DNA of 64,000 bases from Psammoneis japonica (lineage: Eukaryota). The stretch is taken from positions 62,001-126,000 of the forward strand of contig QPGO01000079.1 in assembly GCA_008632985.1 (NCBI GenBank), given 5' to 3'. Of this stretch, positions 7,151 to 60,299 are shown in pieces (position 1 is the first letter of the stretch; each line of letters opens with the position of its first letter). Position numbers and translations under genes: made by a program. Under the pieces are notes generated by a model. It did not search any database, was not told the DNA's origin, and saw nothing but the letters and a program-made list of their open reading frames with translations.

Positions 7151-7419
7151 CCGAATTTTCTTACCAATCCTGAAGTCCTCAAACAAGCACACTTACTAAA
7201 CTTTGCATCAAAGTTTATTATCGATGATAATGAACATGTTATTTATCAGTTCATTAAAACATACAAAAGGGGGTGCTCATGATGTAGTTAATGAAGTCGG
7301 TAAGGGGTGGGTTTTTCGTGCGTGTTTTTCATTTTTTGGCGTTCTCTCAACAGGAATCTTGACTTGCGGCTTTTTTATTTTCAATCTGTCCGTCCATGCG
7401 CATTTGAATGTCCAACTTC

Positions 7420-7640
7420 TCGGGTGCACCATGCTCGAAGAGCGAGTGTGAACGAAAGCAGAATGAATCACAAAAAGTGGAAAATTGGGAGGTTGGATTT
7501 TGTTCTGAGGTTTGAGTTTCTCCAAAGGAGCGGCCTTCAATGGCCTGAAGCTTTTGCGCTGCTTCCACAAACCAAAGGCCTTGCGGAGAATTGGACCCAA
7601 CAACAGATTGTTTCAACACGATCAACGCCAACACCTCGCT
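7420..7640 (-). repeat. LTR-like repeat, copy 1
   Basis: Aligns with 12226-12410 (direct) and 59180-59375 (inverted). Exact LTR ends are uncertain. Confidence 0.8.
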
Positions 7641-10600
7641 TGTGTGCAACCCCCTCTGGTTGACAATGCCTGCTGGCTGCACTTGCCTCCCCAGTTGCAC
7701 ATTGGGGTCACTTGCCAAATGGCACAATTTGACAGATGTCGACAATGTCGTCGCGTTTGAGACCTGTGCTGAGCCGCTGGTGTGCGATGTTGTCATTTCG
7801 CAGGGTCCAGCACAGGGCTGCTCCAATTTTTGAGAGTTTTTCCTGAGCAACATTTTCCTCTCACTCTGCAGGTGCAAGAAGTGTGCTGAGCATTTTCTCA
7901 AGCATTGTTTCTGTTTGTGGCATTTTGTTTTTGCCCCTGCACAAAGCTCCAGCCAGCGATGTGTTGGACATCAAATGTCATGTCTCAATTGAAGACCAGC
8001 TGCCCTGGTGCAGCTTGCACAGCAGTGTGACAAGTTGAATGCACTGCAAAGGCTGCTGCTGACAGCATTCCAGAAAATGGATCCTTTGTGTGGAGAGGAG
8101 CATTTTGCAGGTCAAGTGTGCACGGCATGTGTTGCCCAGTGCTTGGCGCACATGCTCTGTGATGGCATTGGCTGGCTTGTGAATTTTGCACAGTTGTGAG
8201 CCCACATTCAATGCTGCAATCATCTTGGGCCAAAGTTTTAAATTGATGTCCCCAGCGGGCTTGCTTCCACAATCATGAGTGGTCGACAAAGGCCAGCGAC
8301 ATCTGCTTGGCCATGTTCGTCATCCCACAAGTCCAGCAACAGTTGTGTGGGCCCCTTGTCATTTGGAATTTCCATGACCTCAAACCAGCCAGTTGCTGGA
8401 TCTGTCATTGTCAAACACCCCAGAACTGGGGTTTCTTCTTCCCTTTGCAATGCATTTTGTGCGGCCCAATGAGATCCACACATGATCTTTGCCGCGGCGC
8501 TCATTTTTGTTTGTGATTTCTTGTTTTTTTCTGGACAAACCTCCAACCAGCCATGTGTGCTGGACATTGAAAATCGTGTCTCTCTCAAAGACTGATTGTC
8601 CTGGTGTGGCTTGCACAGCAGTGTGGCGCGCAGAACGCACAGCAAAAGCCGCTGCTGACAGTGTGTTGAAAATGGATCATCTGCATCCATGGGTGCATTT
8701 TGCAAATTCAGTGCACGCAGCACATTTGCATGTGGATTTTGTGCAGCTGTGAGCTTGACTTCAATGCCGCAATCATCTTGGACCATGTCCTTGAACTCAT
8801 GATGTCCCATGAACTCACTTCCATGGTCACATGCAATTGAAAATGGTCAAGGACATCTGCTTGACCACATCCCATCTGATGGTCCAGCTGCAGTCATGGA
8901 TTCCTTGTTTGGGATTTTTGTGACTTCAGGCCATCTGGTTGCTGGATCAATCATTGTCAAACATTGCAGGGCTGAGGGTTTCTTCTTTCCCTTGTGACAC
9001 ATCTTGCATGGTCCAACAAGACTCGCACACAGCCATTCCCACAGCATTGCTTCTGTGCACTTTTTAAATTTCTGGCATGTCTCACATTTCAACACACACC
9101 TTGCATGTCTTCACACAAGCCAGACCATGTCAAGTCTTGTGAGATTGTCTCTTCTGTTTGATTTGTGCCAGGGTGCAGAAGATGTGTGTGGCACCAATCT
9201 GTCACTGTTTTTGCAGCATCTTTGGCGCGACAATTTTTTCCTTGTTTTGTGACATGTGGGCATTGTTTGATCTCCCTTGCCTTCACAAAAAGTCTTCACA
9301 TGACATGTCACATCCAACAAATGGAAGAGAATGTCTTTTTCCCCTTTTTTGTGTCAAGAACTTGGCATGTTGAGGGAAAGACATTGTCGTGGGATTTGGG
9401 TGTGACTTTCTCAGCAAATTCTTCAGTGCTGGGGTTTTCTGCAAGTTCAGTTTTTTTTTTTCACAGCAAGTCAGCTGATTGCACCTGTGATCTGTTGGCC
9501 AAACAGCACATTTTAGAGCTCCTTGAGAGTTTCTGCAATGGGCAGCAGCTCCTTTTCTGTTGTGGTGTGGTGTGTCTGTGCTCCATTCAGCTTTCAGCTT
9601 TTGCCAGCTTTGGGAGACAACAGGTTGTTTGTCCTGTGACATAACCACACCCAGTTGAGAATTGCTTGCATCTGTTCATGTCTCAAAGGGTTTGTTGAAG
9701 TTCGGGTGTGCCAGCGACATGTCTTCTGACACAACTTGCTTCACATTTTTGAAGGCTTTTGGTCAGTCTGGCTGGAGGAGCAAGTGTGTGAGATTGTCAA
9801 GGCCACATGTCTTGACAACAGTTGGTCATGCAAACAAAACATTGCAGCTCTTTGCAAGTTTCAGGAGCAGCAATCAATTGAATTGCCTCCACTTTCTTGG
9901 AGATTTGTCTGACACCTTTCTGCAAGAAGATGTGAAACCCAAGAGGACAGTCTGCCTTGAGTCTTGTGAAAAAGGATTTTTTGGCACTGACTTTGAACCA
10001 GCTTGTTTGAGCCACATGAATGTTGTTTTGAGCTTTTGAAGATGATCTTTAAAGTCACTTTTTGTCAGGCACAGCATGTTGTTGACTCACATCCTGACAA
10101 ATTCCAAGCCTGCCATGAGCTCACTCATGTGCTCTTGAAAAACATCTGGAGCTCCACAAATTCCCACAGGGAGCCTGCAGGAGTGCTTGCATTTGCCCCA
10201 CAGCATCGCAATGGTGCACAAACAACATGTGTGTTTTGCCAACTTGATGCAACAATGTCCCATGTTCAAATCAAGTGACATTGCACAAATGAAGCCCTTG
10301 AGCTTCTGCAGCATGTCTTGAACATTGGGTGGAGGATGCGGAGCACACATCACCTCGGCCCAATTCAGCTCACAAAAGTTGGTCAAAAATCAAACTCCAC
10401 TCTTTTTCTTGTGGGTTGAACAAAGGTTGGAGCTGCCCACTCTGAGTGGTTCATTTGTCTCTTGAGACTCCTGTCTTGCAGAGTCTTTTGGCTTCCCTTC
10501 AAGTGGTTGCTTCCAAGGCTTGTGGAACAGGAAATGGCTTTGCGTGGTGTGGGGTTGCACCTGATTTGATGCAAGATTGACCAGTTTTCCATCCCACATG

Positions 10601-12225
10601 CCTGAGGAAAAACCAACAAAATGATTTGCTTCTGCTCCTCTGGAGTGAGGTGAGTTGCTGCTGCAGTTGCATTGTTGAGGTCAGAAGTGTGACAGCCAGT
10701 GCCCTGTTGACCCTGTCATTGAGGCTCTTCATGGCGCGAGATTCCTCAATGTGATTGTCAATCAGCTTCAAGACCTTGGCATCAAAGAATGCATCTGCAC
10801 CCTTCATTGGTGCAGTTGCACCCTCCCATTTGATTTCTTCATCATTTGCAAAATCAAGTGTGATTCCAAGACTGCTCATCAAGTTGTGTTCCATGATCAC
10901 ATCATGTCACCATGAAGAAGAAAGAGTGCCACCCACATGTGCCGTCTTCTCAATCATTTCATGCTCATCCAATTTGGGCAATGAGAACTGTGTCTTGCAT
11001 TTGCTGTCAGTTGCAAAGAGCCCTCCCTTCTTTGGTTCTCAATTTCTGTGTGAATTTGCACAAAATTGTGATCAACAATGTTCTGTCATCAAGAAGAACA
11101 CACGGAGGCTTGTTTTTCTCTTTCTCCAAGGAAGTGTTCACACAAGCAATGACTGTTGGACTGGCACAAATTGTTTTGTCCTTTTTTCTGGGCTTCCCAA
11201 TGTCCAGTGACATGTGTGACTCTTCAACAGGCACCAGCCATTCCTTGGATTTGCTGCATGTCATCGGCTCTCTTCACTGAGAGCATTGGCACTGCAATCT
11301 TTGCCCTTGTGCTTTTTGTCACTCTTCAATGAACTTGCCTTGAGAGTTTTGTTGATTGCCTGAGCAGCCATGGCATTCTTCAACTCTTTCTTGTGAGAGG
11401 CACCTCTGTTGTTGTGATGCAACCACATGCAATTACCACTTGAATGTTGCCATTTTGGGTTTTGTTCAGAACTCTCATGGCGTTCCTCAGCTGGTCTTTC
11501 AATGATCCAGGATTCACCCACATTGTGGGTGGTCTTTTCGTCACAACAATTGCACCAGCACTTGTTGGACTCAGAATGTTTGGCACCTGGCAGGTGGCCA
11601 TTTTTGGGGCCACGTTGAAACCCACTTTTGGTTTTAGAATCAGGGTCATGCTTGCTGTTGGCATCAGCCTTGACATGAATTTGGTCAAACATGTCTTCTG
11701 CAACCTCCAGATGTTCCAAAAACTCAACCAGCAACTTGTTGAAGGTGTGGTCCAAAATCTCAAAACCTTGTGCAGTTGACTGATGCTGCCACATGCAAGG
11801 TGCAACGTTGTGGACAACATCCCATCTTCTTCCAGATGTTGGTTGGCTTTAAAGGGAGGGTGGAGCTTAAAGTCTTCAGTGACCTCCAGAGCTCATGTGG
11901 TGATTTCTTGAATCTTCATCAACTCCAGTTTCTCTTGAGATCACAGTGCAGATGTTGTCTCTGGCTCTGAAGTGCATTCTTCAGGAAGACATGGTTTGAG
12001 AGACAATCCAGGCATTTTTCAAAGGCTCCTTTGGCTTCTTCATCATCTGTGTTTGTCGCCTCATTCTCAAAAACTTGGAGAGTGCTCCCCTGCAACAACA
12101 TGTGCATGAGCCAGAACCCATCAGCTTGCTTCTGAATGCTCTGTCCAGCCAAGACTTGACAACACATCTTGAGGAATTTGGCGCACTTGGGGGCTCCTTG
12201 TTTGTTGCAGCACGTGGCACTGCAA

Positions 12226-12410
12226 GAAAAGTGGAAAATTGTGAGATCAGATTTTGTTCTGAGGTTTGGAGTTTCTTCAAAGGCACTCTCAATGGCCTGA
12301 AGCTTTTGCACTGCTTCTGCAAACTGAAAGCCTTGCAGGGAATTAGACCATGACAACAGATTGTCTGGATGTGATCAACATTGACATCTTGTGTGTCATC
12401 ATCATTGTCC
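12226..12410 (-). repeat. LTR-like repeat, copy 2 (truncated, joined to gag)
   Basis: Shares AAAAGTGGAAAATTG..GATTTTGTTCTGAGGTTT..TCAATGGCCTGAAGCTTTTGC..ACAACAGATTGT with 7473-7633. Confidence 0.8.
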
Positions 12411-15400
12411 AATCACATTTGCAATGTTAGACATCCGATCACATCTGTGTGATTGATCTGTCCTTTGCAAGCACCCATGAGTGATTGTGGTGTGATTGGC
12501 ATGTGCAACAATGTGCAACTGTGAACATGTGCAATTCCTTCCACTTGAAAATGTGCACGTTGCACTCTTGAGCCCATGCTCAGAATCTGCTTGAGCCATG
12601 ACTGCCTGTGCAGGGGGCAATCTCATCTCCACTGCTGCTTTGATCCAACAAGGCTGTCCACACTGATGGCAAACCCTGGCATGTGCTCAGACAACCTGCG
12701 CCAGATGGCGGAAGTGTTCTTTTTGCTGAGCAGCTGGACAAACTTCAGACCAAAAGAATGAACATGAGAGGACCCAATCTTGTCATGTTTTTTGCCACAA
12801 TTGATGCAACCAGACCAGCTGGTCAAGGGGGGGGGGGGCTGAGTCAAGGAGGGTGTTGGAGTCAAGCAGGCCAAGGAACATCCATGTGCATGACAAGAAG
12901 AGCACACCTGTCTTTTGCTTGCTTGTTGGAAACATCCCTGATGCTGTGCTGATCACTCAGTCATGGACCAAGCAAACCCAGCAAGGTTAAAATTTGAGTG
13001 AACAGAGGTGAGAAGCAAGAAGGCTGCAGAGTTGCACAAGACATGTGCTGAGAAGTGCACAGATCAAGAAGGCTTTTCAGATGTCAGGCCCCCCTGCCAT
13101 GGCATGTTCTTTCTGATGACTTGGAAACTCTGGATTGTGTGTCAGGTTGCCCAAAAATTGCACACTTGTTGATCCCCAGCAAAATCTTGCAGCTGTTGTT
13201 TTTTTTAATCTTCTTTTTCATCACACTGTGGGTGTCAACCCAAAACAAAATGGCCACAACACCTCAGCAACTGAGCCATGGCCCCTTTGGCAACAGCCAC
13301 ATCCCCCCAGCAGACCACCCACAGCTCGTTTCAGGTCCTCAGGGTTGCTGGCTCTCATTGCAAAATCATGACAAGGGTGTGCTCACATTTGGACCACATT
13401 GACAAAAAGCACTTCCAAGTCAACCAAAAAATGAGAAGATGCAAAAAAGAAAACTGTGAGATTGTTTCCCTGTTGCATGAAAAAATCAAAAATCTTCCTG
13501 TTTTGTCAAGCCAAAGGCTTTTTGTTGCGGCTGTTTGTGAGAACAAAAACTGGTTGGGCACTCTTGAATGTCTGCAGAGTGTGCTGAGCAAATCAGTTGC
13601 AGCATGCTCCAAGCACAGGTGAGCCAACTTGATTGCAAAATTGCCACTTTTTCTGCTGGTGACCATTGATTTGTTCATCACCTGATGTGATGTCCCACCA
13701 AGTCCCACCCTGGGCTGGAGTTCATCAAAAACAAGGATGAAATGCACAACCTGGGTTGTTCCCACTCAGCAGATCAGCTTGCTTCTGCTCTCTTGACATT
13801 CCTTGCCTTGCCCACCACCCTTGGATGAATTGTCAATGTGCCATTGGTGTGTCTCATGATGCCAAAGCACAGTGTGCTGTCATCCATCAGCCACCAAAAC
13901 AGCGCAATTTTGCAGCAAGCAGCCCATCTGCCAGCCAGAGCAGCTGTGGTCATCTTCTTGAGAAAGCTGACAATGTGCTGCTTCAGCAGTGTGCCTGTGC
14001 TGTCAGTGGCTGTGCTGTCACTCACTGGACTCCCTGCAGCTGGAGCCATGATGTCTCTGGTGAGACAGAGTTTTGCCACAAGCTCAAGCACAAGGGGGGA
14101 AGTGCAAAAGACCTTGTTTGCACACCTCTTCCTTCAAAACCCAGTCTTTGCCATGCTGTTGTCATGCACTGGGAGACAGCCACAAAGGAAGAAAAAATGT
14201 GCACAGTCAAAAACAAAGCTGGAGCAAAAGAAGAAAAGCAATCAAGTGTTTTCTTTGCAGGGCAAGAAGAAAGAGCTGCTTCTCAGCATCACAGCACTGA
14301 AGAAGCTCAGCAAAGATCAAGTTTTGAAGATGCAGGAGCTGGCCAACCAGGCACTGAAAGAAAAAGAGAACAAACCATCAGAAAATTGGGGTGCCTTTTC
14401 AGAAAAAAATGGCTGCAAAGGAAAATGAGGAATTCTCAGGCATCTGCAACATGTTTCTGCACTTGACAAGAAGAGAAATGAACAGCAATTGCAATTTTCA
14501 CATTGTTTGTGGTTGCAGTTTCCTCCAGTGCACAATTTTCACAAATGTTGGATGTGCTTTGTTCTGTCGTTTGATTTGTGAACAATTTTGTTGTGGTTGC
14601 CTTGGCATCAAGAGTGCAATTTTCATTTTGCAAACTTTGATCTTGTCAAGAACTTGCTCATTTGGTTTTGGAAGGACTTTTCCATTTGATCACCCAGCAC
14701 AGCCTGCATCACAGCCAGAGCTTTTTTGTGCATCTCGCGCAAAAAAGCTCATTGCCACACAAACCCATTTGCTCCAACAACTTCTGAACATGACAACAGG
14801 TTGGGGGGGTGCACGGTGACAGGTCGGTGCATGGCGGGTGCACTCTGTCATTGGCAACACAGGGAATGATGCAGGTGAGTTTGTCCCTTGTGTGCTTTTG
14901 TGTCTTGCTCAGCAGCACACAAGCAAAGCTCACAGGGCTTGGTCAAGCAACTGACAGACCTGGTGCTTGTGGACAGCCCTGCAGGTGGGTTGAGCACTGT
15001 GTTCACTCTGTTGCCAAGTTGGTCAACAGATGACTCTGAGAGTGTGTGGTGCCATTGCTGGTCAATCTTTTCCCATTGGGCAACCTGGTTGTTCAACTGT
15101 GGTGATTGGAAAACCAGACCCACCAGTCTGCTTGAGATTGGATGTTGCTGAGAGTGTTTTTCATGGTTGACAGCTTCAAAAGAGTCAGCCAGCACTCCCA
15201 CCGGTTGTGTGTTGCAGCTGTTGGAGGTGGCGCTGTGCTGTCATCAGACAGAATGACCCAGCTCAAGCACTTTTCAGGTGGCACTGTCACACTGCTGATC
15301 AACTGAAGCTCATCTCTGGCTGTTGCCACAATGACTTCCTCCAGCCTTTGGAACAATGTGCAGAGCAACTGCCAGCTCAAGTGCCAAACTGTTGACCCTC

Positions 15401-16726
15401 CCAACTGCAGTGCTTTCATGCCACCAATTGTTCCATCTTGTTGCTTTGTCTTGGCTGGAACTCTTGAGTTGGTTGGTGGTGGAGACAGCTGCGCTCTGCA
15501 GTTTGCAAGTTCAAGTGCGCTGCTGCTGTTGGGAACAAGGTGACATGGGCCCACAACCCCACAAGATGAACCTTGCAATGCTCAGAAACAGTTCTCAAAC
15601 TGTTTCCTCTGGAGCCCGCCAGAGACCACCAAGGTTGTCAGCTTGCAGTTGTGAGGTTGGTTGCCACCACTGTGAGATCTTTTTGCACTTGGGAGCTTCA
15701 AAGTCCAAGTCTTCTGCTGTTGGGCACAACATGACACATGGCTGCAGAACTGCAAGATCAGCCTTGCAGTGCACACTGACAGCTCTCAAAATCTTGCCTG
15801 GGGTCTTCCAAAGATTGTCAGGGTGGTTGGTGCTGTGACAGCATTTTTTGAATTTTGGACTTGGGAAAGTCAAGTGTCTTGCCCTGGGCCTGCCAAACAC
15901 CACCAGCACCCTCCTTGGCTCAGATCTGTCAGCTTGGTTGGTGCCAAAATGGCGTGCTTTTGGTGCAACATTTGGGAACTGAAATTTGTTGCTGTTGAGA
16001 ATACAAGGTGACATGAGGCCACAACACCACAAGATCAATCTTGCAACTCCCAACAGCAGCCTCAAAGTGCTGCCTGTGGCCCACCCCTCATGCTGCCAGT
16101 GTCCTCAGCTTGCAACTGTTGGGTTGGTTGGTGCCATTCAGTGCACTGTGCTGTCCAGAAATGCAATTTTCTGAACAACAGAGGAGACATCCATTCCGAC
16201 AAAGCGCCTGCACCAGTGGAGTGAAGAACCCTCAGCTGATGGATGTCGCTCTCCAGCATTGCCACTCCTCAATTCAGAAAATGGCAATGCCGTGCGTTTG
16301 AAAGACGCTAAATGCAATGATCTCGAACGTTTTGAACATGCAAATCACCTTGTCATCTTCTGCCCTGAAAATGCTGTAACCGCGTTTGATGCAGCTCTAG
16401 TCGCACTGTCTCGCTTTCGCACCACTTGATGTCTAATCTCAGCACTGTCGATGCTGTTGGCGACATCGCTGTGGAAGCAAAAAAGGATGACCGCAATCTA
16501 TTGACGAGAAAACTGGTTTTTCAACAAGCCGTTGAGCACTCAAATGGACAAAAAACAATTCGCCTATCATTAATGGTATGAATTACACTAAATAACAGTA
16601 AATAATGTCACATAAAGATCACCAATCACCACTGTTCATCTTTCTGGAGTAGCAACAATCCAGAGATCATGTACAGTGCGATGTTTGCAAACAAAACTCT
16701 GAGGCAGTAGCTGTTCTCCCTTTCAT

Positions 16727-22794: not shown

Positions 22795-24593
22795 GGTGAT
22801 GCAATGCGGCGGCTTTAGTGTGTGTTGTTCGTTTTCTCAGAAATGCCAAATCACATGTCCCGGTGTTTTTCCGTTTTCAACAGAGACAAATTGTGACGTT
22901 CTATTTCCCTCTTTGTGTCTCATGCCATAGTTCATACAACGTATAGGTATTCCAGCTTTCTCTATTGCTCCAATGATGCCGTATGCTTTGCTCTGTGTTG
23001 TGTTGGAAGTAATCAATCGCAGGCACTGCACTTCGCACTTTGCGTTGTTCTTTTGCTTTTTTTCGTGTCGCTCGGCCGCAGCGGTCGGCGCTCGCGTTGT
23101 TGACTCTTTTTGGTACCGGTTACCACCTTATGGTTCCACGTAGAAGTTGTACCGGGCTTACTTACCCTGATTATCATAGGTATGTGGCTGGAATGATTTT
23201 TAGAAATTTAGAGTAGATTTCTACGCAATTAGTGCAACACGTCACCAAGTTGAAGTTCATTTTGTTGGAGGGAAAACAAAAAGCACGAGAATTATCACGT
23301 GCCCGGTCTCTCGACGATGATGCTCACAGCTTCTTGAAAATCCATGGCTTTTAGCACTACGACCTACACCCACCTTGCCAACCCACCTGTGAAGCTCCCT
23401 GAGGGCCGAAGTGCAAAAACCCATCATGTCTGATGTCCGAAAATCGTTCGCATCACAACACATGCATCGGCTGTTCTTGGATTCTCGCGTTCAGAATCAA
23501 TGGATGCCAGCAGACCTGTGGACAGAGCACTGCAATGCAAAATTCAACATCAATGATGAGAGAGTCGAAAACAGGGGCAGACAATTGAAGAAGCCGTGTG
23601 GCAGCATCAACGGGGTTTCGAGTTTGACGGAAGAGAACAACGTTGTTGCTGGCGGGTGAATTTGTGCGAAACGGAATGCCAACATGGCAGTCAAGCCCAA
23701 CCCCTTTCCCGACTTTACAAATCACTTGAAGCAACTCAAGGACGAAAACAAAGCCCGTGCATCCCGGTTCTGTGCTGACCTGCAAGACGTTTTAAGGATT
23801 GAAAACTCCCGAACCTCCGTTTGGACACGAGAATCTCAATCACTTTGTCGGATCCAAGTCTTTGGCAAAAAACATTGACATTTGTCATGATCTTGCAAAC
23901 CCAAGTTGTTCTTTGCCACCGAGCATCAGCAAGGGCATCGTGGGAGCACTTCCAATGGGTGCAATTTAGGATGAGACGATTTTGAGGATTGCAGCTTTTT
24001 GACAATCAACTGACATCATGCTTTTGAATTGCCAATGACGATGGCTCGTTGTTGTGCTGCCAGAGGCTCATCTACACTGCCGTCTGCTCGCTTTGAGAAC
24101 GAATCGGCTGCTTGCGCCTTCTCTGCCAACAGACGCATGTTTGGTTTGAGCAGTGGGCAGACAGGAACGGGTGCAAGTTTCATCTCTGAATGCACACCCC
24201 AAACAACACCACTGAACCAATCGAAGGAGTGCAAGCACTGCTGTCACAGCTCTAGAACAGTTTGTGCCCCACCTGCCCACGTGGTGTCGGCAGAAGAGAG
24301 CAAAGCCAAAGGTGGCATCAAGCGACGACGGCATTAGAGGCACCAGCAACTGGCAACAATTGTTCCACAATTCAAAATGCAGCAGTGCTTCATTGCACAC
24401 TTTTCCTGTGGAGATGCTTGCCTCTTGTGCAGACATCTCGAAAGGATCTGCACCACTTCAGCATCGCGCACATCACGTGGGAGTGCGAGTGGTCTTGACT
24501 CCAAAATGTCATTCTGAACTGGCGTGGGAATGCACAGAATGTCTTTGGGCTTGTGCAAAAGGTGAGTGTCGAAACCTTTTCCTGCCACAGAAA

Positions 24594-25097
24594 ATGGGAA
24601 AAGAGAATTTCAAGAAATCGGCTTCAGATGCGGGGGGTGACACACCTCTGCACAATGCTGCCAACACCAGGATGGATGCTGTTGCAAAGATTTTGTTGGA
24701 GGAAGGCACTGATTTGGAAGCAGTTGACATGAGGGGATGGACCCCGCTGCATTTCGCATGCATCGGCAACCGCGCAAATGATGTGTTGTGCGTGCCCATT
24801 GAACGAGGTGCAAATTTGAATGCAAGAGACAATGACGGGAGAATTCCGATTGATCTTGCAATCACAAAAAAGGGCCTCGACCCCATGATGTTGCTCTTGA
24901 TGGAAGCTCATGCAAGACAGCTGCTGCCCATTGACAATGCCCATCCTGATTCATGGGCACAAGCGCTTGCATTGGTTGGACACAAGAAAACCCAGATCAG
25001 GCTGAGTTTGCTGTTTTCTCTGCTTCAAGCGAAACCCGACTTGTTGGAGCACTCACAATGCGAGCACAATGCAAGGAAGTGCAAGAGGTCCGATTGA
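24594..25097 (+). pseudogene. Ankyrin-repeat protein remnant inside domain B
   Basis: GDTPLHNAA..VAKILLEEGTDLEAVD..GWTPLHFAC..ERGANLNARDNDGRIPIDLA; contains no Tyr codons. Confidence 0.8.
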
Positions 25098-25949
25098 TTG
25101 GTTCTTTCCTTCCTGTGGTGCATTGTTCTTTCAAATGCCGAAAGACACTGGGTTCTTCTTCAGTGGCATTGGTGTGTTTCTCTGTAAGAGCGTTAGATTT
25201 CAAAGCAGAACATTGTGTGTCAGAGCACAGTGCTCCATGCCAGACTCAAGTTCTGTTGTAAATTGGTGTTGTGTTCACTGCCACTTTCATTCCTCAAAGG
25301 GAATCGGACTGCCGGTGCGGCATGAAGCCGAGCACCACCTCATCCATGACAAACCGTGCAACTTCATGAAAAAGGAGCAGCACAGCCATCAGAATCTAAA
25401 CAAATCATTGCGGCCACGATCGAAATCTTTTTGTTGCGCTGCTTCCAGGAGAGATCTGAAAATGTTGAGAACTCGAGTCTAGTGCTGTCCCCTGTTTTCA
25501 TGTGATGCTGCTTGAAAAGTGTGCCAAAACTTCCTTGTGCCCGTCTCTTTCGCAGAGGCCAAGCCAACTGCTGCGCGCATTTGTCACAAGAACGAAAACA
25601 ACAATGGCCAGTCGCCAGGGCATGAACAAATGTCCGCTGCAAAGTTGGTGTCTAGCTCAACCTGCAAGTTGCAAAAGAGCAAAGGAAATGCTGTTGCACC
25701 CACTGTGTGAAAAGCGTGAGCTGGAAGATTGTTGAAACAACAATTGCCAGTTGTGCTGCACCAGTGCTGCAGCGAGAAAAGGCTGCAAAATTGTCGTGCA
25801 GTTTCAATCCACTGCACAAAACCTGACGCGTGAAGCCGCGAACTGGAAGATTGTTGAGCAGGGGTCTGGAAGTGTGGGTTGTTGGCCCACTTTGTCAGTT
25901 TTGCCAGCCAGCTGCACAGCAGCACTTTAAGCTGGGTTTGTGTTTTTTC

Positions 25950-28420
25950 AACTGTTTCTCTTTGATTGGCAAAATGAGGAAGTCTGGGATTGAGCTGCAG
26001 AGCATCTTGATTGCCCACTTTTGACACCTGAACCAGCCTTGCAATTTTCACTTTTGGCAGCTTGTTCATTTTTTAGCTCTTCAGGGCACAGCACACCAGC
26101 AGCTGACTTTGCCAAAGCACTGTCTCAGAAGTGCTTTTCCAACTTCTTTGTTCTTTGCCAGCAAGTGTCTTCTTTCTGTTTGATTTTCTTGCAGAGCTGG
26201 CCTTCTTCCAGCACTTCAAAGTCACCCAAAAAATGAAGTCTGGAATGCAAAGCCTCTGTGCTGCCACCCCAGCCCCATTGCTCAGCTCCTCTCAGACAGC
26301 AAAGCTGCCAGCAGCAGTGTTCACACCCCAGAAATTGTGGGTGCTGTGTTCTGAGCACCATGGTGACTGATGAAACATGCAGAGGGAGGGAGAAAGAGAG
26401 AAAATGTCTTGCCAGGGCCCACCTTCTTCACAGCATGTGGTGTCAAAGCCTTCAGGCTTCAGGTGCCATTGCCATCAAAGCCACAAGTGCAAAGTGCCTT
26501 GTGACAGCCAGAGAGCTGCAACTTTGGCAACATCTTTTTTTTCCCAAATCTTGGCACCACATTTTCCTCTTTGATGCCACCACAGAATGCTTTTCAGCAC
26601 AGCAAGTGTTGAGAATGCTTTGTGCCAATGCACTTGCCCACAACCACTGCTAAAACAACCAGAGAATTTCTGGCCAATTGGAAAAATGAGGAACTTTTGG
26701 ATTGTTCTGCAGAGCATCTTGATTGCCTGCTTTTGATGCCTGAAATGGCCTCACAATTTTCACTTTTGGAAGTCAGTTTGTTTGTCCCTCTTGGCTTTTC
26801 AAGGCACAATGCACACCAGCAGCTGACTTGTTTGCCAAAGTGCCACGTCAGAAATGCTCTTTCTCAACATTGTTCTTTGCCCGCAAATGTCTTTCTTTTC
26901 CACTTTCTTGTGAAGTTCTTCCAGCCCTTCAAAGTTGCCCAGCAGTGCCCAAAGACAAACCAGTGGCTGCGAATGATCACAAATTGGTGTGCCCAGGATC
27001 TGGCAGCATCTTTGCTTTGACAGCAAGCACCTGCTTAGAGCAGCACCAATGCAAGCTCAGCAACATCATGGTTTCTTCTTGGCCCTGGAAAGCACATCAT
27101 CAACAACCAGCGGGAATTGTTGTTTTTGTGCGCTGGCGCTGTTGCTGCTGTGCATGACTTTCTGACATCTCCAGTCACAGAGTTGCTGTGTTGCCTGAAG
27201 CAGCCTCATAATTTTCACTCTTGGAAGTCAGTTTGTTCATCCCTCTTGGCTTTTCAAGGCACAACGCACTGGCAGCCAACTTGTTTGCTAAAGTGCCATC
27301 TCAGAAATGCTCTTTCAACATTGTTCTTTGCTTGCAAATGTCTTTCTTTTTGACTTTCTTGTGGAGTTCTTCAAGCCCTTCAAAGTTGCCCAGCAGCGCC
27401 CAAAGACAACAAGCCAGTGGCAGTCAATGACCACAAGTTGGTGTGCCCAGGATCTGGCAGCATCTTTGCTTTGACAGCAACACCTGCTTGGAGCAGCACC
27501 AGCGCAAGCTCAGCAACATCATGGTTTCTTCTTGGCCCTGGAAAGCACATCAACAGCCACCAGGACTTGTTGTTTTCATGCACCAGCATTGTTCCTGCCA
27601 TGCATGAGGGGTGAGAACATCTGTGCTTCTGACATGATCCAGTCACAGAATTGCTGTGTTGCCTGGAACAACTGGAGGCAAACAGATGAAGTCAATGAGA
27701 AAGTGCCTTGTGACAGCCAGAGAGCTGCAACTTTGACAACATGACATTTTTTTTTTGCCCAAATCTTGGCACCACATTTTCCTCTTTGATGCTGCCACAA
27801 AATGATTTTCAGCAAAGTGAGCATCAAGAATGCTTTGTGCTGACACACTTGGCCACAAGTGCTGCTCAAACAACCTGAGAATTTCTGGCTAATTGGCAAA
27901 ATGAGGAACTCTTGGATTGTGCCACAGAGCATCTTGATTGCCCACTTTTGATGCCTGAAACAGCCTCACAATTTTCCCTGGTGGAAATCAGTTTGTTTGT
28001 CACTCTTGGCTTTTCAAGGCACAGTGCACCAGCAGCTGACTTGTTTGCTAAAGTGCCATCTCAGAAATGCTCTTCCAACATTGTTCTTTGCTCAAGAATG
28101 CATTTTTTTTTAATTTCTTGTGAAGTTCTTCCAGCCCTTCAAAGTCATCCAGCAGGGCTGAAAGACAAACCAGTGGCTGCCAAGGACTGCAAAATGGTGT
28201 GCCCAGAACCTGGCTCCTTTTTTGACAGCAAGCACCTGCCTGGAATGCTGACACCACAAGCTCACCAAGACAGGCCCAGGAAAGCACCTCAACAGGACTT
28301 TTGTTGTTTCTTTTGTGCCAGTGTTGTTGCCATGGGGTGGAGAGAGCATCTGTGTTTCTGACCCAGCCACAGAATTGCTGCATTGCTTGGAACAATTGGG
28401 GTTGCAAGCAGATGAATGAA
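25950..28420. repeat. Degenerate tandem array, four related units
   Basis: The core ..CAATTTTCACTTTTGG..TTTTCAAGGCACA..CAGAAATGCT..CTTCCAGCCCTTCAAAGT recurs in units starting near 25970, 26680, 27200 and 27895. The block AAAGTGCCTTGTGACAGCCAGAGAGCTGCAACTTTG occurs at 26491 and 27700. Confidence 0.85.
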
Positions 28421-31198
28421 TGGAGCCCACATTGGTTGCTGATGGTGATCTGCTGTCTTTTCTGGTTTTTTGTTTTGGCAGAAGTGCCTCCTGGCTTCTT
28501 GTTTGCACAAGCCCCACTTGGTGGCAAGACTTCCCTTGAGATCTTTTCTCAGCCATGCTTGAAGGTCCAATCTCAGCTTCCTCTGCGGCTCTGTCAAATG
28601 ACATTTGTTCCTTTGCTTTGCAGACCACCAACAATTGGTGAAAAAAGGTCAACAACAAGTCCACTGGCTGTTTCATCTGTGCACTTTCCACTGAATGCAT
28701 GCTGACTTTCTTGCTCTGCTGTGGCAGGTGGCGCAATCTCCACACTGCTGTTCAGCGCCAAAAACATGTGGAGGAACAACAGCATGGGCATTGAGAGATC
28801 TGCTGGTTGCCAACCTGCCATCTGTGGAAAGTTGGCTCTGCACATGCACAACTCTGCATGTGGTGTCCTGCAAAAATGTGGGAAGGGTGCTTGGCGACAC
28901 TCTCTCTCCTCCTGATCTGCTTTGCATCCCAAACAAGGAGCAGAGATCAAACCCCCAGAAAAGTCCCAGAAGACAGAAACAGGTGCTGGGCACACATGCC
29001 AAACAGAACAATGAACCACACAGCTTCCAACTGTCTGTGCAAGATTTGCAACCACAGAGTGCTCAAAGTGACAACTTGTTCTCAGCCCAGCTGCCAGCCA
29101 GCCTTGGGCTGCAATGAACAACCAAGAGTGTCAGCATGTTTCTAGAGCACATGCTGCTCCTCTTTGTTGGTGTGTGGCAGCTGATCTTTTGGGTCATTGT
29201 GTTCTGGCATGTCATTGACAAAAAGTGCCAGTGCCAAGCTCTCATGTTGAGAAACCCCGCCCCCCCCCAGCTCTGCCATGATGAAGTGCAGGTGCTGCAA
29301 CACACTTGTTTTTCTCTCTCCAATTTTGAACAACCACAAAACTCAGCTGAAGTGAAGGCAGCTGCTTGCAAGAGCTGATTCTTGCACACAGATGTCTGGC
29401 GACAGTTCCCATCTGGTGGCAGCTGGTGGCTGCCTCCAATGTCTGTGTCCAGAAAATGATCAGCGTGGCTCTAACTCTGTGTGTTTTCTGCCCCCTCACA
29501 TCATCAAATTGGTGGCTGACAGAGTTGCCCTGTTTAACCTTTTGCCATTGGCATCAACATGAGCTGGGCTTCAGCGGACAAGCCCCCAGCCAGTTGCTGC
29601 TGGGGCTCCCCACAAATCTCCCAAAAGATTGGGCCCCCATTGGCGGCCATGCACAGCACATCATGTCTCATCCAACTGCTCCATGTGCATCCTGCCCACA
29701 CAGCCAGGGGTGTGGCTGACAGAGTTGTTTTTTGCTTTTTTCTTTGGTTGCAGGCACCAACAAAGTCCACAACCTGTGATGGCAGATGAAGAACCCAGTT
29801 GTCCTTTTGGGGGGCTCACACAAATCTGTGGCCTCTTTTGAAAATTGTCCTTCACTGTGCACACAAATGAGAAAGGAGACTTGCTCAGAGTCCGCTGATG
29901 TTGTCATCTGTGCCCAGTGCACAGCTCCTTTGGCACCCTCTGAGGCAACCTCCTGGTGTGCCATGGCTCTGTGCACGACACCCAGTGTTTTTGAGCTTTT
30001 TTTGCTGCTTCCCTTTCTTTCTCTTTTTGCTTCTCCTCTTGTTCTTTTTAAAGGTGTGCCATGGCAAATTTGACACTCCTTTCCTTTTTCCAATGCTGCA
30101 TCATCAGCAGAGGTCTCTGTGCCGCAGCACAATGCCCTTGGCCCAGAGAGCTTGGCTGAGGGTTGAACCTCCTCTCTTCTTTGTGCATCACTTGCTGCTG
30201 GTGCTTTGCTCAAATGACGCTGCTCTGTTCAGGAAACTTCTTTGACCCCTCTCTTCTCTGGAGAGCACCAGGTGGCTGCTGTTCTGGGCTGGTGCTCCTC
30301 AATGGCAAGCAGCCTCTTTTGCACCATGTTGGTTGCAAAAGCTGTTGGAGGTGAAGCAAGAGGGTGCAGCGCATCGTTGCCGAAATTGCGGAAGGGCCCG
30401 CACATCATTGCCGCCATTTTGCACCTTGAAAGAAGATCTTCCCACCGCAGAACAAAAACAACATTGTCACAACAACGAACGCGGTGGATCCTCGTTCGAA
30501 AGACAGACAATGGAACGTTCCGATGAATGAGAATTCAGGCGCAGTAATTCATTTGTTCACACGTCAGTGATTGCTGATCTCACACGTTTGTCAGTGACCA
30601 ACGACATTTCTATGGGAGAGTCATTCTTACGTGGTGATTGGAAAGGTCGTACGGAAGGACTATCATTGCCCAATGGACAATTAGTCATCCTAGCAATCCG
30701 ACTTTTTTGCTGCTACTTAACCGGGTCATCTCAACTGGATCTTAGGTGTCCAAATGCATTATGTGCCATCTTTATTGTTTGACATTCTTGGTTTCTGTTG
30801 ACAAAACCAAATAATTACGTTCGTGGAAGTCTTGATAAATCAAAGAGAGCCGTTGACCACTGATTCTTCCATAGTGACGGAACACCACATAATACTTATA
30901 GATGTGACAGTGCAGTATTGCGAATTGTGAAAGATTTTGCTCTTTTGGCGCCAAAAAAATTGTCCACCGGGGGGCAGATTTATGAAATTTTGGCCGACCG
31001 ATCACCAACAAACGCACCCAGTGGTTGGTGGAAGCTACTGTAGTGCTCCGTCCAACAACCTGCTCCCAGTCATAGCTTGCAGGGACTATTTCGTCGCACT
31101 CGAGAAAATAGGAAGCACTTTAAGCCATTCATATCTCGGTTGTTCGTGTTCTACCGTTGGAAGGAACTTCGTTTGAAAACATCGACTCTGACAACGAC

Positions 31199-38358: not shown

Positions 38359-39079
38359 GGTGGTGTGTTTGCTTGGTTGTCTTACTGCCTCCAGAGGGCT
38401 GGTTGCTTGGTGAACAATGGGATGACAAACAAACAACAACAACTCTTTCGTTATGATTGTTTGTGGCTTGTCCGTTTGCTACTTTCAATGCGCCGTGTAC
38501 CGGTATACGGTAGAGTGAGTGTACCGGTACACCTGTCGTACCGATACGGTAGATTGCTTTCCGACCGTTCCCATCTACCGGAGGTATGTAAATAGTGGCG
38601 AAGTTATTTTTGCTGTTGAAAAATCTCGACACAAAAAATACTTATCGAAAATCGGCTTTCGTCAGTCACTAAAACACACCCAGTTGCAGCGACTGACGAA
38701 AGCCTTTTTTCGATATCTTCAGTTGTAAGAGCTGTAGAGCAAGAGCAAAGTCTAGAAACAAGGTGTCCCATAAGTAATTTATATAGTATACAATTCTGTA
38801 TGAGATTTCGGAACTCCGGGTTAAATGTCAAATTTATGATACGACTAATGTTTGTATATAAATATAAAAATCAATTAGAAAAAGCGAATATAACCGTTAT
38901 TTTTTCTTAAATAAATAATGCCAAATTTTCACCGACAAACATTCGCTTTCCGCACACTCCGACCGATACAACATGCGTTTGACCTTGTTCAGCTCGATCC
39001 TGAAAAAAAGTTCGCTGCTGTTCACATGCCTCCGGCACTAACCACATGATGTACGGTAGAACTTTCAAATTAATTTCGC

Positions 39080-41700
39080 GCATGAGCTCGCACTGCAGTG
39101 TTGACACTGCCTCTCGAACAAAGAAGCTGCCAACCACAGAGCAGAGCTGGGGTGACCTTGGTGCAATTTGTCCAGGTTCCACATTGACCAAAATTAAAGC
39201 TCCAGCACTGCCCTCTCTCAAGGTGGCCTTGGTGGTCTTGACAGCTCCCAGACCAGCTCCAGCACTTTGAGAAGTGGCTTGTGTCGCACAGAGAAAGGAG
39301 GGAAGGGAGGGGCAGCTTTGGTGCAAGTGGAGAGAGGGCTGCACTCTGCCTCCATGGTGGAGAGAGCAATCTTGAGTGCAAGTTTGACAGACTGAATGAC
39401 AGGACAGTTTGAGTTTCAGGCCACAAGCCCTGGCTGACTCTTGGCGCAAGCCTGGTCTTTCTTGTTGCCTTCATGTGGGGGCACAGACCAGCAAACTCTG
39501 AGCGGCGCTGACAAAAACACTGGCGCTGAAGACCCCAGATGGCTCGGGGGTTGAACCTTCCTCAAGTGAGCCCCTGGGGAGTTTGCTGATCCTCGTGAGG
39601 GCCAGCTCATGTGAGCAGCTCAGGACAAAAACAAACCTGGCTGCTGGGCCAGCAGCTGCACAGGTGACATTGGGCCTGGGGCAGCCTTGGAGGCACCGCT
39701 GGAGCATGCCAGTCACACTGGCACAACTGGGGGCTCCATTCCATGGGTCTTCATCAGCGTCCTTGACCAACTCAGACCAACAAAAATGCTGGTGCACAGG
39801 TGGTTGGGCCTTTGGCAGATTGCCTGCACTGAGAGTGTGAATGGTGCACTTGGCCACCAGGCCACACTGGGTCAGCTTGGTTCAGCCATTGTTGGTGTCA
39901 CAATTGACATGGATGCCCAAAAAAAATGCAGCAAAATCTAAATTTTTGAAGGACAGACCACCGCTGATTTTGAGCTGTTTGACCACCTTGTTGATGCACT
40001 CTGACCTTGTCAGACACAAAGAGGCATGAGCCCATGTCATTTAGAGGATGGAGCCCAGCTTCTTCAAGCTTTGATTTCAGCTGCAGGAAAAAAAATGCAG
40101 CCCTTGTTTGAGATTGCAAATGGTCTTCTTGAGTGCTTTGCCAGGCTTGGAGCATCCTTGCACACGCGCGCCAGTGCATTCCCACTCTTTGGGCATCATG
40201 TCGCCCCACTTGGGATTTGTGCTGATGGGAGCATGTGCAAAAGCAGTGACATGATTGACTTGCTTGGCAGAGAGCTTTTTAAAATTTGAGACAGCATGAT
40301 TGCAAGCTGTGCTGCTGTCTGATTTGCAACCAGAGCTGAGGCATCAGATGATCAATGACTTCCAGCTGCTTGTTTCCACAGACAAAAAATTTGGCCTCAC
40401 ATTTTTGGATGGATCAATCAGGGCATCTTTTGCATTTGAAGGCCCAAGTCGTGGGTGGGAGCACATTTGTCCAATCTTGGTGGCAAGGGAGTCAACTTTG
40501 ATGTCACAAGCCTGGCAGAGACAGGCTGTGCAATCAGGCCCACTTGTTCCTTCTTCCCAAGTTGGATTTCTTTGAGTGCATTGCCCACATTCTTGACCAG
40601 CATTTTTGTTGAAGATTTTGATCACAGCAGCATGCAAGTCTTTTGATCTGAGGGCATTTGTCATCCTTTCCCAATGCAGTGCCATCAAAAACTGCTTGTT
40701 CAGTGTTTCTGACCTGACAAAGCATTTGGAATTTTCATGTGCAGCCAGTGACTTGTTGGGTGCAGTGCAGATTTTGGCCTTCATGGACTCAATGACGATG
40801 CAATCTGGTTTCTTTGCAGTGTGGCCACTGCAAGTCCGAGTGGGAGCAGCAGGAGCATTTGGAGCTGGTGGCACAGGCTCTGCTTCATCAAAACCAACAT
40901 CCAGATCTTCATGTGAGTCATGATGATCAACAAGGGACAACTCATCATCACTGTCATTGCTGAGCTCATCAAGCTCTGCTCCCTCTGGGGAGTCTCGGAA
41001 GTTGCACTGAGCCATGGAGTGACAAATCCTGAGTTGGGTGTTGCTCTGCCTGTCCAATGTGACGGGTCAACAAACACTGTGAAGAACAGTGACAAACCAT
41101 GAGTCATCTACACACATTGTCTGCTGCTTCATTGCTCAAGGGATGCTGAAGAAAATGCCGCTGCGCGGTCTTCTCGACAGCTCTGCTGTCGCTTCGGACA
41201 TGCAACACCAGCAAAACGTGTTGAAATGTGTCCAGATCACGTTGAATGGTGGGAAGAAAGTGTCACTGCGGAAGTTGAAATAAATCGTTTGCAAGCTCAA
41301 AGTGGTCGAAATTGGCCTTTCCATTCCGCAAGCGATGACAAAAGGAGCGACCGTGACAGCAGCTCGCGCTGCCCAACTCCCCTGCGTTCAGCACATCCAC
41401 AATCGTTTGAACAGTGAAAAAGCCCGCCAGAAGCAAATGCACGAGAATGTGAGCAGGAACCGATGGCAAGAATTAAGAGCCACCGGTCCAAAACGTCCGT
41501 TCATTTCCCTTGCCGTGTTGGAGGGCGTGTGCCGAAGTGCGAACAACAAAGAAAATCAAACGCCGAAACCAGGGACTCACGCTGCGCGCAAGAGACCTCG
41601 ACTGCTTGAGCCACTGCCTCATCTTCACCAAAGGATGTAGAGTGGGATGAAGCACAAAGCTCCCAAACGGATGCGCTTTGGCACCAACAACTTGAAAAAC
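39080..41700. other. TpA-depleted domain C
   Basis: TA is nearly absent. CG is lost over the copia part but retained at 41150-41620. Confidence 0.9.
39100..41130 (-). mobile_element. Degenerate Ty1/copia pol fragment (integrase end, RT, RNase H), diatom CoDi-like
   Basis: NPTWEEGTSGPD, QVNHVTAFAHAPI, FFLQLKSKLEEAG..SCLFVSDKV, CASVTGMLQ..RPNVT..ARFV and KATLREGSAGALILVNVEPGQIAPRS match copia RT/RNase H motifs in the expected order. Confidence 0.85.
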
Positions 41701-42395
41701 ATGCCAACACAACAGACACCATGATCGACCGCAGGAGACGATCCATCCACCTTTCAAGCTGTAACAAAACGCAACAATGATCTTTAGTGAGTAAGAAAAC
41801 GATAGTATAAAATGAGAAAAACAGAAAGAACTTGCCGCCGCAGCGTTGTCGACCATTCAAGTGTTACGTGTCAAACGTCCCGCGCAGTTGAGTGTTGAGT
41901 CACGAGGAGTCGAGGCACGCAACAGTTTGTTTATCATGCCGTGTGTCGCAACCGAAGCCCCCCGGAAACCAAACCAATGTATCAACCTCTTTATAACACA
42001 ACGGTAGAAAAAGATCCCCCATGAAAGATACGTCGACCCAACGATGTTTGCCATGTTCTGAATGTCGAGACACATCATAAGTGCAACATGCCGTTTTGAA
42101 AGTTTGAGTGCAATCGACTTATTCGACTCACCCATAGCTGCGTTTTTTGCTGTCGGCATGGGCATCACGTCTTGCGTTTGTGACACAACGGAGTTCCAAT
42201 TGCAATCCTTCCAGCTGCTTAGAAAGGCTCATGAAGGGCTCTAGAGTTATCACTGGGTAGGTTTGGTTTGCAGAGACTCAAAGCATCAGTATCGGTTTCA
42301 GTTGCAGAAAACGATGAACGCAGAAAGTGACGATTTTTCAACTGGTGACGCCGCAGCACTTACTCTCAGTCGCTAAAACATATACAGTACATCCC

Positions 42396-44470: not shown

Positions 44471-45989
44471 GCGATGCCCAACCTAAACTTTGACGTCTCT
44501 TACCGCCAAAACCGGCATATCTTTGCTGTCTCTTTCATCCGGCGTAGTGCTCGTCCACATCGACTTCATGATGGGGGTATTTTCGAAGGAATGTTTGGAC
44601 ACAATCGCACCGTTGAAGCCATGGAGAGTTCGGTCGAGTTTGTTTAGGATCTACTGATAATCGAATACCAACCTTCGATGCTACAAGTCTCTATATGGAA
44701 GCAAACATTGCTGATTGTGATTTATGCGGTTTGTGCCATGATCTCTGGCTTGTTTGCTGCCCGTGTTTATCGAATGAACCGTTTCGCTACCAAACATTTC
44801 ACGCTTTACCAATTAATAAAGGACAGGAACCATTGCACAGACACTGCTCGTATTGCAAAAAAAATCATGTCTTTGGTATGCCGCAGCCAATGCCCGTAAC
44901 AGAGAGTAATGGTGGGTGTCAGCGCAGATATCAGAGTTCCGCACATGTGGTAACCCTGCCTCATGCGACGATGCACCACGAGCCAAGCGTAATTCAATAT
45001 GAAGCTAGACTCTCTAGCTAGCAGCTGATAAGGTGTTTCCAAATACCATTCTCGATATCGGGATAAAATAAGGATCGAGATTTCCCAATACATTCCACAG
45101 CAATGCCAAGTCCCGATACAGATTGTCCACCGGATAAGATTCATAAGTTGCAATGAATTCCACTACATGACCATGACAGGACTGGTTGTTCCAAACATTT
45201 TCGTGAGTGTCAACGACCCCAACAGCGATAGAGTTGTAGCGAACACCGACCGCATGCAATTATAATCTGAATGGACAGCCGCTTTCAGTCCCACAATTCT
45301 CATTCCTACACCACCCACCGATGAAGCCATACATGCAGCGATTCCGAGCTTTTTTAATTCAAGTTACTAATGACGGAGAAGCAGCAGACGATCCAGCAGT
45401 AGCAGAGGCTGGAGACTTCGCCAAAACGAACCACGAAAGAATCATAGCCATAACAAAGTGTATTTTTCTTCTCTTGCTTACTCGGTTCACTACAGGCATT
45501 GCTCTTGAAGACACTGAATCATTGTATTCCAACGCATCTCGTGTAAATGGTTTGATTGATGCAGTTGTTTTCTTCTGGACATTTTCTGTTTGACTTTGCC
45601 AATGTCGAGATGACAATCTTCTGTTCTGTTTGAAAATACAAACAAAGACATTATTATGACGAGGATTCCAAATGACGGGACTGTTGGTGCTGAGGCAGGC
45701 GATGTTGCTGGAGGGGGTTGTTGTTCAGGAAGCGATTGCGGTGGAGGTGCTGCAAACCAAGGCTGTTGTGGTGCTTGTGTATAGACCTGCTGCCGTGGAG
45801 GCGGATACTGCGGCTGTCTGCGTGCGTGCAGCGTGCAGTGCGCATTGGCAAACGTACTGTACGCGTCGATCAAATCCGCGCGACTGACTTCTGACGACAG
45901 CATGCGGACGACGCAAGCACGGACGCTGCCTGCGTTGGAGCGAGGGAGGGAAAAAAAATCTCATTGGCTGTCATGCAGTCCTCAAAGCA

Positions 45990-46450
45990 ATCACATGATA
46001 ATTGTGATGAGCAGGGCACTGCAAACTGACACATCACTTGCTCTCGTCTTTCTCTCAGAGGAGGATTTGCAGACACCAGGGGTGCATGTGCACTTTTTGA
46101 AGGGCTTGGGTGCAACTCCAGTGTGGAAACCTTGGAGGTGTGTTTCGCGAGATGACATCAGCTTTGCATGGGCTTTGGCCTTTGGTGAGCTGTTGGTTCC
46201 ATCATCAGGGCACCACTCAAAAAGTTGTTTCTCATGAGTTGTGGCATCACAGACAAGGGTGCAGTGGCTCTTGCACAGGGGCTCAAGAAAATCAAAAGCT
46301 TGAGCTGGTTGAGCGTGGGCTGCAAGAACTCTGCATTGGCGAGAAAGGCCTTTCTGCAATGCTGGAAACAGGGAGAGATCACAGCCAAACAACCACTTTT
46401 GTCTTGATGTGCCTGGTCAGACTTGCAACTGCAGCTCACCAGAAGCAAAC
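45990..46450 (+). pseudogene. LRR protein remnant inside domain D
   Basis: ALQTDTSLALVFL and FLMSCGITDKGAVALAQGLKKIKSLSWLSV resemble RNI-like LRRs. Confidence 0.6.
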
Positions 46451-60260: not shown

Positions 60261-60299
60261 ATGCAAAAACAAGAGAATCTGCTCACATGTCCAGGTGGT

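Follow-up and report, generated by a model that had tools for sequence, protein, structure and literature searches.

CA/TG swaps between long terminal repeat copies and transitions at TpA steps after insertion in a diatom genome

A TpA hypermutation signature has so far been reported, in the accessible preprint text, from one alga, the rhizarian B. natans, where TpA changes to TpG or CpA at about 1000 times background in an integrated giant virus present as a single copy and in a virophage region; the changes occur only in some clonal (mitotic) lines, and ADAT2 was proposed as the enzyme (bioRxiv 10.64898/2026.01.13.699255). The present analysis concerns an unrelated alga, the diatom Psammoneis japonica, and a 64,000-nt stretch of its contig QPGO01000079.1 (positions 62,001 to 126,000; hereafter the window), in which three copies of a Ty3/gypsy-type long terminal repeat (LTR) differ by reciprocal CA/TG swaps. 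These swaps are the scars of a process that acts after insertion and rewrites most TA steps in presumably silent DNA.

In both organisms, as far as the preprint's accessible text goes, TpA is changed to TpG or CpA, on both strands and within foreign-DNA regions; in B. natans, TpA-poor sequences are enriched in reverse transcriptase (RT) and DDE domains. Almost only TpA is changed in the diatom, and its erasure is near saturation, with an observed/expected ratio (o/e) of 0.03 in erased tracts, compared with 0.62 in gene-bearing DNA of the window and 0.45 in the nucleocytoplasmic large DNA virus region of B. natans. In contrast to B. natans, the diatom is a stramenopile, it has LTR retrotransposons and host-type gene duplicates as targets, and its tracts extend for kilobases inside 4.7-kb elements. 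A preference for TAY (Y, pyrimidine), a spill-over onto CA, AA and GA, a coupling to CpG decay and an effect on LTR dating are seen in the diatom and are absent from the preprint's accessible text, whose supplements may bear on context. The mutation rate was measured in B. natans, whereas the diatom process is known from sequence comparison only.

In ascomycetes, repeat-induced point mutation (RIP) likewise produces dense, repeat-confined transitions that follow insertion and fall on both strands, inflates the divergence between LTRs and affects duplicated genes. However, RIP makes TpA from CpA, whereas the diatom loses TpA; C>T changes at CpA amount to only 7 of 5282 sites in its tracts. The decay of methylated CpG also yields CA/TG swaps, and forms a slower second layer in the diatom (CpG o/e of 0.20 in old tracts), but it cannot convert TA to TG or CA, and the diatom loses TA while CpG is intact. 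Editing of retroelements by APOBEC or ADAR, which acts on one strand and before integration, also leaves hypermutated copies; in the diatom, by contrast, both strands are changed, the LTRs of one insertion differ and non-retroelement genes are affected, so that neither the LTR pairs nor the host-type duplicates carry a one-strand, pre-integration pattern. Diatoms have DNMT5-dependent transposon methylation and a DNMT4 of unknown function that is related to RID, described in a paper whose accessible text makes no mention of TpA (PMC9998398). No diatom report of TpA hypermutation was found in the open-access literature, a coverage that mostly excludes subscription papers. We know of no case where adenine deamination of chromosomal DNA is established as a natural route of genome defence.

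Reciprocal swaps among the LTR copies of the window

Four TpA-erased tracts with sharp edges occupy 35,991 of the window's 64,000 bases. The first (7377..16308; 14 TA and 84 CG in 8932 bases) holds LTR copies 1 and 2; the second (23366..30544; 25 TA, 130 CG) and third (39072..41761; 8 TA, 63 CG) lie between it and the fourth (45861..63050; 36 TA, 134 CG), which contains LTR copy 3. Alongside the loss of TpA, the tracts have a CpG o/e of 0.20 and a CpA/TpG o/e of 1.80, compared with 0.99 and 1.16 in the rest of the window. TA survives best in TTAA, at 0.57 of its frequency outside, followed by CTAA/TTAG at 0.24; most other contexts are down to 0.05 or less.

An earlier note, made from the letters alone, had reported the swaps among these copies, and all eight strings that it quoted were located (7562/12314, 7493/12247, 7588/12340 and 7554/12306). 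The swaps exceed chance in all three copy pairs, as judged by 5000 simulations that placed the same number of transitions without regard to context. In particular, copies 1 and 2 differ by 6 swaps against 0.84 expected (168 columns) and copies 2 and 3 by 10 against 1.91 (189 columns), neither value being reached in any simulation, while copies 1 and 3 differ by 4 against 0.98 (119 columns, P = 0.008). The third copy, placed by the note at 59180-59375 in inverted orientation, is an inverted LTR with its end at 59378.

To label the ancestral state of each swap, the three copies were aligned with six natural TA-rich relatives, which are only about 75% identical to the window copies, making the TA and CG labels approximate. 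Where TA is present in at least three of the six relatives, the three window copies retain it at none of 17, 22 and 27 sites, respectively. The swaps labelled as TA, CG and neither number 3, 2 and 3 between copies 1 and 2 (both CG-labelled ones fall in a poorly aligned tail), 7, 0 and 2 between copies 1 and 3, and 7, 8 and 2 between copies 2 and 3. Both kinds of ancestral site are therefore present, in agreement with the proposal that an ancestral TA or CG was resolved on opposite strands, and TA-labelled sites occur in every pair, so that the swaps do not all reconstruct to CG; the quoted examples at 7494 and 7566 are TA sites. The proposal's logic thus stands in outline, as does the independent mutation of each copy after insertion, but two of its examples were wrong or unproven. 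The contrast of TTG-CG-CTG with TTG-CA-CTG (7557) is not simple CpG decay, since the site has TA or a TA product in six of six relatives, and its CG is probably a second A>G step; the TA/TG pair (7592/12344), offered as a direct capture of the TA step, lies where the relatives differ and is not assignable, and the same is true of the swap at 7573. Nor are the losses of TA and CG one process, with TA loss far ahead of CG loss. The anticipated inflation of LTR dating is present, though only about 2.4-fold between copies 1 and 2, where 34 of 168 columns differ overall and 8 of 94 outside TA, CA, TG and CG; divergence is thus unequal at the remaining sites.

Conversion at TpA steps after insertion

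A search for LTRs in the 91-Mb diatom assembly (G000) gave 456 candidates, of which 40 were scored, and the summed read depth points to hundreds of family copies, although it is not a copy number. Forty-two loci were examined for target duplications, with the element ends free to shift by up to 8 bases: 35 have a perfect 4-bp duplication, five an imperfect one and two no LTR pair. The perfect duplications indicate that the two LTRs of these 35 elements were identical at insertion. Their pairs now differ at 623 of 12,811 columns, and 545 of the 623 differences are of TA class (TA/CA 153, TA/TG 192, CA/TG 190 and TA/CG 10), leaving 50 of CG class and 28 others. The direction is from TA to CA or TG, as reverting to TA restores Tyr codons like those of metagenome relatives. 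Across the young LTRs, the TA count falls from some 30 to a minimum of 1, while CG mostly stays at 19 to 24 in both LTRs. The family therefore forms a natural time series, in which an LTR pair (367 bp) has between 1 and 36 differences over a background divergence that is near-flat as TA loss increases, and its half-converted young elements show that the process was recently active. Two elements (L129 and L133) carry the same TA losses in both LTRs, which means that elements were still being copied after partial erasure.

The consequences for dating are large. The divergence of the 35 pairs is 4.9% overall, but 0.48% (28/5855) outside TA, CA, TG and CG, so that standard LTR dating comes out about tenfold too old in this family, and very unevenly. 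Four old elements, whose target duplications were not verified, diverge by 17-24% overall and 8-15% outside those dinucleotides; the inflation is smaller in old copies because their TA sites saturate. LTR ages, transposable element landscapes and gene predictions will be wrong in such genomes unless TA, CA, TG and CG sites are masked.

The anatomy of the conversion was resolved in 40 elements aligned to a natural copy that has changed little; the 16 with no more than 2% background divergence were kept, with 265 of the 315 TA sites and, elsewhere, only private differences. Kilobase tracts of these elements undergo A:T to G:C transitions after insertion, almost only at TpA and on both strands. 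Inside tracts, 557 TA sites are kept and 821, 942 and 13 read CA, TG and CG (76% converted); outside, 1682 are kept and 73, 51 and 2 are converted (7%). The tracts are 0.6-4.7 kb long in 19 of 24 cases, and their placement varies by copy, from the 5′ half, the middle, the 3′ half or both LTRs to the whole 4.7-kb element. Several copies share tract edges near element positions 2790 and 3650, which hints at boundaries set by sequence and may also reflect the tract caller or sampling.

Which product appears at a given site varies from copy to copy. Of the 237 sites hit in two or more copies, 200 have both CA and TG, which also supports TA as the starting state, and the concordance among copies is 0.595, exceeding 0.75 in only 1 of 120 pairs; both outcomes per site, together with low concordance, indicate independent events and not copying from donor copies. 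CA and TG are interleaved along each copy with only slight clustering (combined runs z of -2.6, 16 copies). One-pass, strand-specific editing was rejected, as a single pass followed by replication predicts one product only. One hit destroys the TpA target, and sister copies consequently end as CA/TG swaps, to which the slower decay of CpG later adds further ones.

The sequence context is strict. By 5′ base, the A>G frequency in tracts is about 38% per strand after T, 0.54% after C, 0.35% after A and 0.18% after G. The fitted hazards by 3′ base are 1.16 for TAT, 1.02 for TAC, 0.39 for TAG and 0.31 for TAA, a bias toward TAY over TAR (R, purine) that was repeated in an earlier pass with a different reference and looser masking. 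Three further comparisons are free of circularity. Private A>G changes outside TA are 4.8-fold higher in tracts (67/19183 versus 9/12285, P = 2e-7), a weak spill-over onto CA, AA and GA that favours a 3′ T; C>T changes at CpG are 4-fold higher (70/3653 versus 12/2505, P = 4e-7); and C>T changes outside CpG are not raised (22/12521 versus 17/7846, P = 0.51).

Candidate enzymes and rival explanations

A TadA/ADAT2-type enzyme that deaminates adenine in silenced chromatin is, on balance, the probable source of this pattern. Such an enzyme would be brought to silenced, CG-methylated chromatin and would deaminate the adenine in 5′-T-A-Y to inosine; conversions would build up over many cell cycles, or be fixed site by site, leaving CA and TG interleaved. 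The outcome would be the wrecking of transposon coding and regulatory sequence, a purpose like that of RIP reached by the opposite chemistry, for which homology would not be a sufficient trigger. The 4-fold rise of C>T at CpG in tracts fits methylated chromatin. The order of the minor contexts in tracts (CA, AA, GA) agrees with that of the TadA-derived adenine base editor ABE7.10, which makes A>G changes on DNA in the order TA>CA>AA>GA and prefers TAC, according to the accessible text of its description (PMC8065034); ABE7.10 is engineered, Cas-guided and much looser in context, so the resemblance is one of motif only. The G000 assembly encodes a TadA-like protein, two proteins with ADAT1/ADAR domains and an ADAT2-like protein in which Asn occupies the position of TadA-108. 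They are among 10 PF00383, 5 PF14437 and 4 PF02137 matches, labelled by inspection as dCMP deaminase, TadA, ADAT2, guanine-deaminase-like, RibD and the two ADAT1/ADAR-domain genes.

Several points weigh against a deaminase of this type. The TA preference in the diatom is about 70- to 200-fold, compared with a TA/GA gap of about 3- to 4-fold reported for ABE7.10, and among the minor contexts only CA versus GA differs significantly (P = 0.001), while CA versus AA (P = 0.10) and AA versus GA (P = 0.07) do not. The Asn at the TadA-108 position is presumably usual in eukaryotic ADAT2, and thus not discriminating, and Pfam scans of G000 gave just the deaminases to be expected, with neither a clear ADAT3 nor any TadA-type gene that is additional or fused to a chromatin domain. 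Intact elements are found between fully erased flanks (L115), so that a position within a silent block is not instantly effective. The 76% versus 7% contrast in TA conversion is partly circular, as tracts were called on TA loss, and tract positions carry a bias too, the aligned copies being the best 40 among the 503 candidates that a TA-rich 3′ query gave. Moreover, sequence does not distinguish A>G from T>C at TA, and a lesion of thymine fits equally.

That last point admits another origin, in which the TpA thymine is oxidised or otherwise modified enzymatically in silent chromatin, pairs with G and yields T>C. Its outcome in sequence would be identical, and a writer enzyme that recognises a palindromic site would suit so strict a dinucleotide rule. 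We nonetheless consider it unlikely: the minor contexts follow the TadA order, and no Tet_JBP match was found in G000, weak evidence in that the control also matched nowhere.

A true analogue of RIP, with repeat pairing as the trigger of mutagenesis in the sexual stage, possibly via a DNMT4/RID-like protein, is a little less likely still. Every converted sequence examined is multi-copy, in some elements both LTRs are converted while the middle is spared, and G000 has 29 C5-methyltransferase matches beside the kinship of diatom DNMT4 with RID noted above (PMC9998398, accessible text). However, five near-identical silicon-transporter copies (96.5-100% identity; among 6 of 24 matches examined) keep TA at an o/e of 0.45-0.49; two of them lie on one contig and are 100% identical, and some may be haplotype duplicates. 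Duplication or homology alone is thus insufficient as a trigger. Further, within a single family the tracts vary from copy to copy and frequently leave out the LTRs, A:T to G:C changes are not accounted for by a cytosine methyltransferase, and the B. natans target, in the accessible preprint text, is single-copy and mutates in clonal lines (bioRxiv 10.64898/2026.01.13.699255).

Error-prone patch repair of the polymerase-eta type, triggered by T:G mismatches from deamination of 5-methylcytosine, is improbable. Polymerase eta places G opposite T at WA (W, A or T), and its signature is A>G with AA well above CA and GA. The 4-fold higher CpG decay in the same tracts would agree with such a trigger, and A>G at AA is indeed raised about 9-fold there (27/7694 versus 2/5053), but AA remains about 100-fold under TA and is not above CA. 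In addition, 76% of TA sites are changed compared with only 1.9% of CpG cytosines, and transversions are rare (27/35357 inside and 9/22636 outside tracts).

It is very improbable that the pattern reflects ordinary CpG decay on top of an already inherited scarcity of TA, or mosaics copied from older, decayed elements. About half of the swaps between copies 2 and 3 do fall at CG sites, and TA loss common to both LTRs was inherited in L129 and L133, but in young LTR pairs TA is lost while CG stays intact, the concordance between copies is low, and background divergence stays level as TA is lost. The least credible explanation is that a modified base at TA was misread in sequencing or in the consensus. 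It is open to consideration because run X1 (containing 0.82 of 634 sampled words of window 7400-13400) may be the assembly's own source, with its library type not on record. It is opposed, within the limits that this sets, by X1 contigs (on L041) of single-copy depth, which have 0-1 differences from TA-erased stretches over 156-238 nt, and independently by the scarcity of CG (13 of 1776 converted sites) where a symmetric misread predicts many CG and TA calls, and by inherited shared changes and old divergent copies, in which the letters were replicated.

If adenine deamination is the source, diatoms and chlorarachniophytes may conceivably share an ancient defence of the SAR lineages (stramenopiles, alveolates and Rhizaria), in which a native TadA/ADAT2-family enzyme deaminates chromosomal adenine at TAY under the guidance of silent chromatin; we offer this tentatively, as a possibility that we judge to fall short of an even chance. 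It would amount to a natural adenine base editor that rewrites a large share of a genome and could be studied in a genetically tractable lineage. Whatever the enzyme, the near-saturated diatom case extends the signature to another SAR lineage, to LTR retrotransposons and to redundant genes; its context motif can be set against candidate enzymes, and its tract edges against maps of methylation, histone marks and small RNA.

Some of the deaminase and methyltransferase loci of G000 have unusual features. Two ADAT1/ADAR-domain genes (L106 and L108) are present where one ADAT1 is expected. At L085 (313-1785, minus strand), a deaminase domain is fused to a 2OG-Fe(II) oxygenase-like domain, as labelled by inspection, and L090 resembles a TA-erased copy of its deaminase part. 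A dCMP deaminase with two deaminase domains is identical on contigs C41 and C317 (L081/L084 and L082/L087), probably a haplotype duplicate in the assembly. The C5-methyltransferase matches include loci L092, L093, L096-L099 and L102, and one such gene adjoins a frame with a chromodomain match that narrowly misses the Pfam cut-off (Chromo, E 2e-5), an arrangement known from some diatom DNMT4.

Targets, spared sequences and the decayed elements of the window

Conversion extends beyond the family of the three LTR copies. A second gypsy family has the same patchy TA loss, and host-type duplicates are affected: an ankyrin-repeat gene copy in the window (24626..25300, plus strand; Pfam Ank) reads CA or TG at 15 of the 18 TA steps of its closest paralogue (L165), C5-methyltransferase duplicates on contigs C297 and C301 (a tandem set) have a TA o/e of about 0.1 with CG at 0.7, and a deaminase-domain gene copy is likewise TA-erased. 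Both TA-poor flanks tested are wholly or partly repeated sequence. Spreading of erasure from the flanks into elements was considered and rejected, on account of the intact elements between erased flanks and the varying tract position.

Among 17 metagenome relatives of the RT, found with a query that favours intact frames, none has TA erasure like that of the diatom genome; their TpA o/e ranges from 0.43 to 0.93, and six are CpG-poor. Three sediment contigs (TpA o/e of 0.43-0.59) have a few Tyr-to-His/Cys changes. In the metagenome relatives L155-L157, L160 and L147-L149, the CpG o/e is 0.02-0.33 with TpA mostly kept, so that CpG decay without TA erasure is seen in other organisms.

The region bounded by copies 1 and 2 (7425-12564) is, from its alignments at 68-70% DNA identity with locus L031, a decayed minus-strand element of the Ty3/gypsy type; the frames of L031 match RVT_1 (E 1.9e-18) and then rve (E 2.6e-6, below the Pfam curated cut-off). 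The family accordingly has RT before integrase, LTR ends of TG...CA and, in relatives, a target-site duplication. Copy 1, in the 3′ LTR position, is the distal part of an LTR only (7425..7660, minus strand); it aligns with the LTRs of relatives and ends in TGCA. It is followed by the decayed integrase region (7680..9490, minus strand; 70% identity to L031 6382-7666), with an internal duplication (7908-8482 / 8504-9029), and by the decayed RT region (9490..10460, minus strand; 68% identity to L031 5256-6253). A decayed 5′ region (11556..12117, minus strand; 69% identity to L031 3352-3909), putatively gag from its position, precedes copy 2 in the 5′ LTR position (12227..12564, minus strand), which is without about 48 bp at its 3′ end. 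Copies 1 and 2 were not accepted as the LTR pair of one insertion, with outer flanks that mismatch (CGGG and CTCT) and no target-site duplication. Copy 3 (59050..59378, start approximate, plus strand) belongs to a second element with an internal deletion, of which it is the 5′ LTR; downstream of it is sequence as found after the 5′ LTRs of relatives, then homology to 11870-12213 and 10802-11029.

Tandem duplications lie within the erased tracts, at 25955-28400 (period of about 450-1200 bases) and 15490-16130 (about 190-470 bases), and a weak DUF5898 match (E 1.8e-4, under the cut-off) at 50644-51123 is also in erased sequence. Upstream of the first tract, the DNA at 6860-7160 is very TA-rich, with CTAG, GTAC and TAGAG runs, and stops abruptly at the tract edge near 7377. 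Between the second and third tracts, a 1829-aa frame (31124-36613) joins an NB-ARC domain to many TPR repeats, an NLR-like architecture. Elsewhere in G000, one of the contigs with silicon-transporter matches contains a single 1511-aa frame with three tandem silicon-transporter domains (C38:226311-230342).

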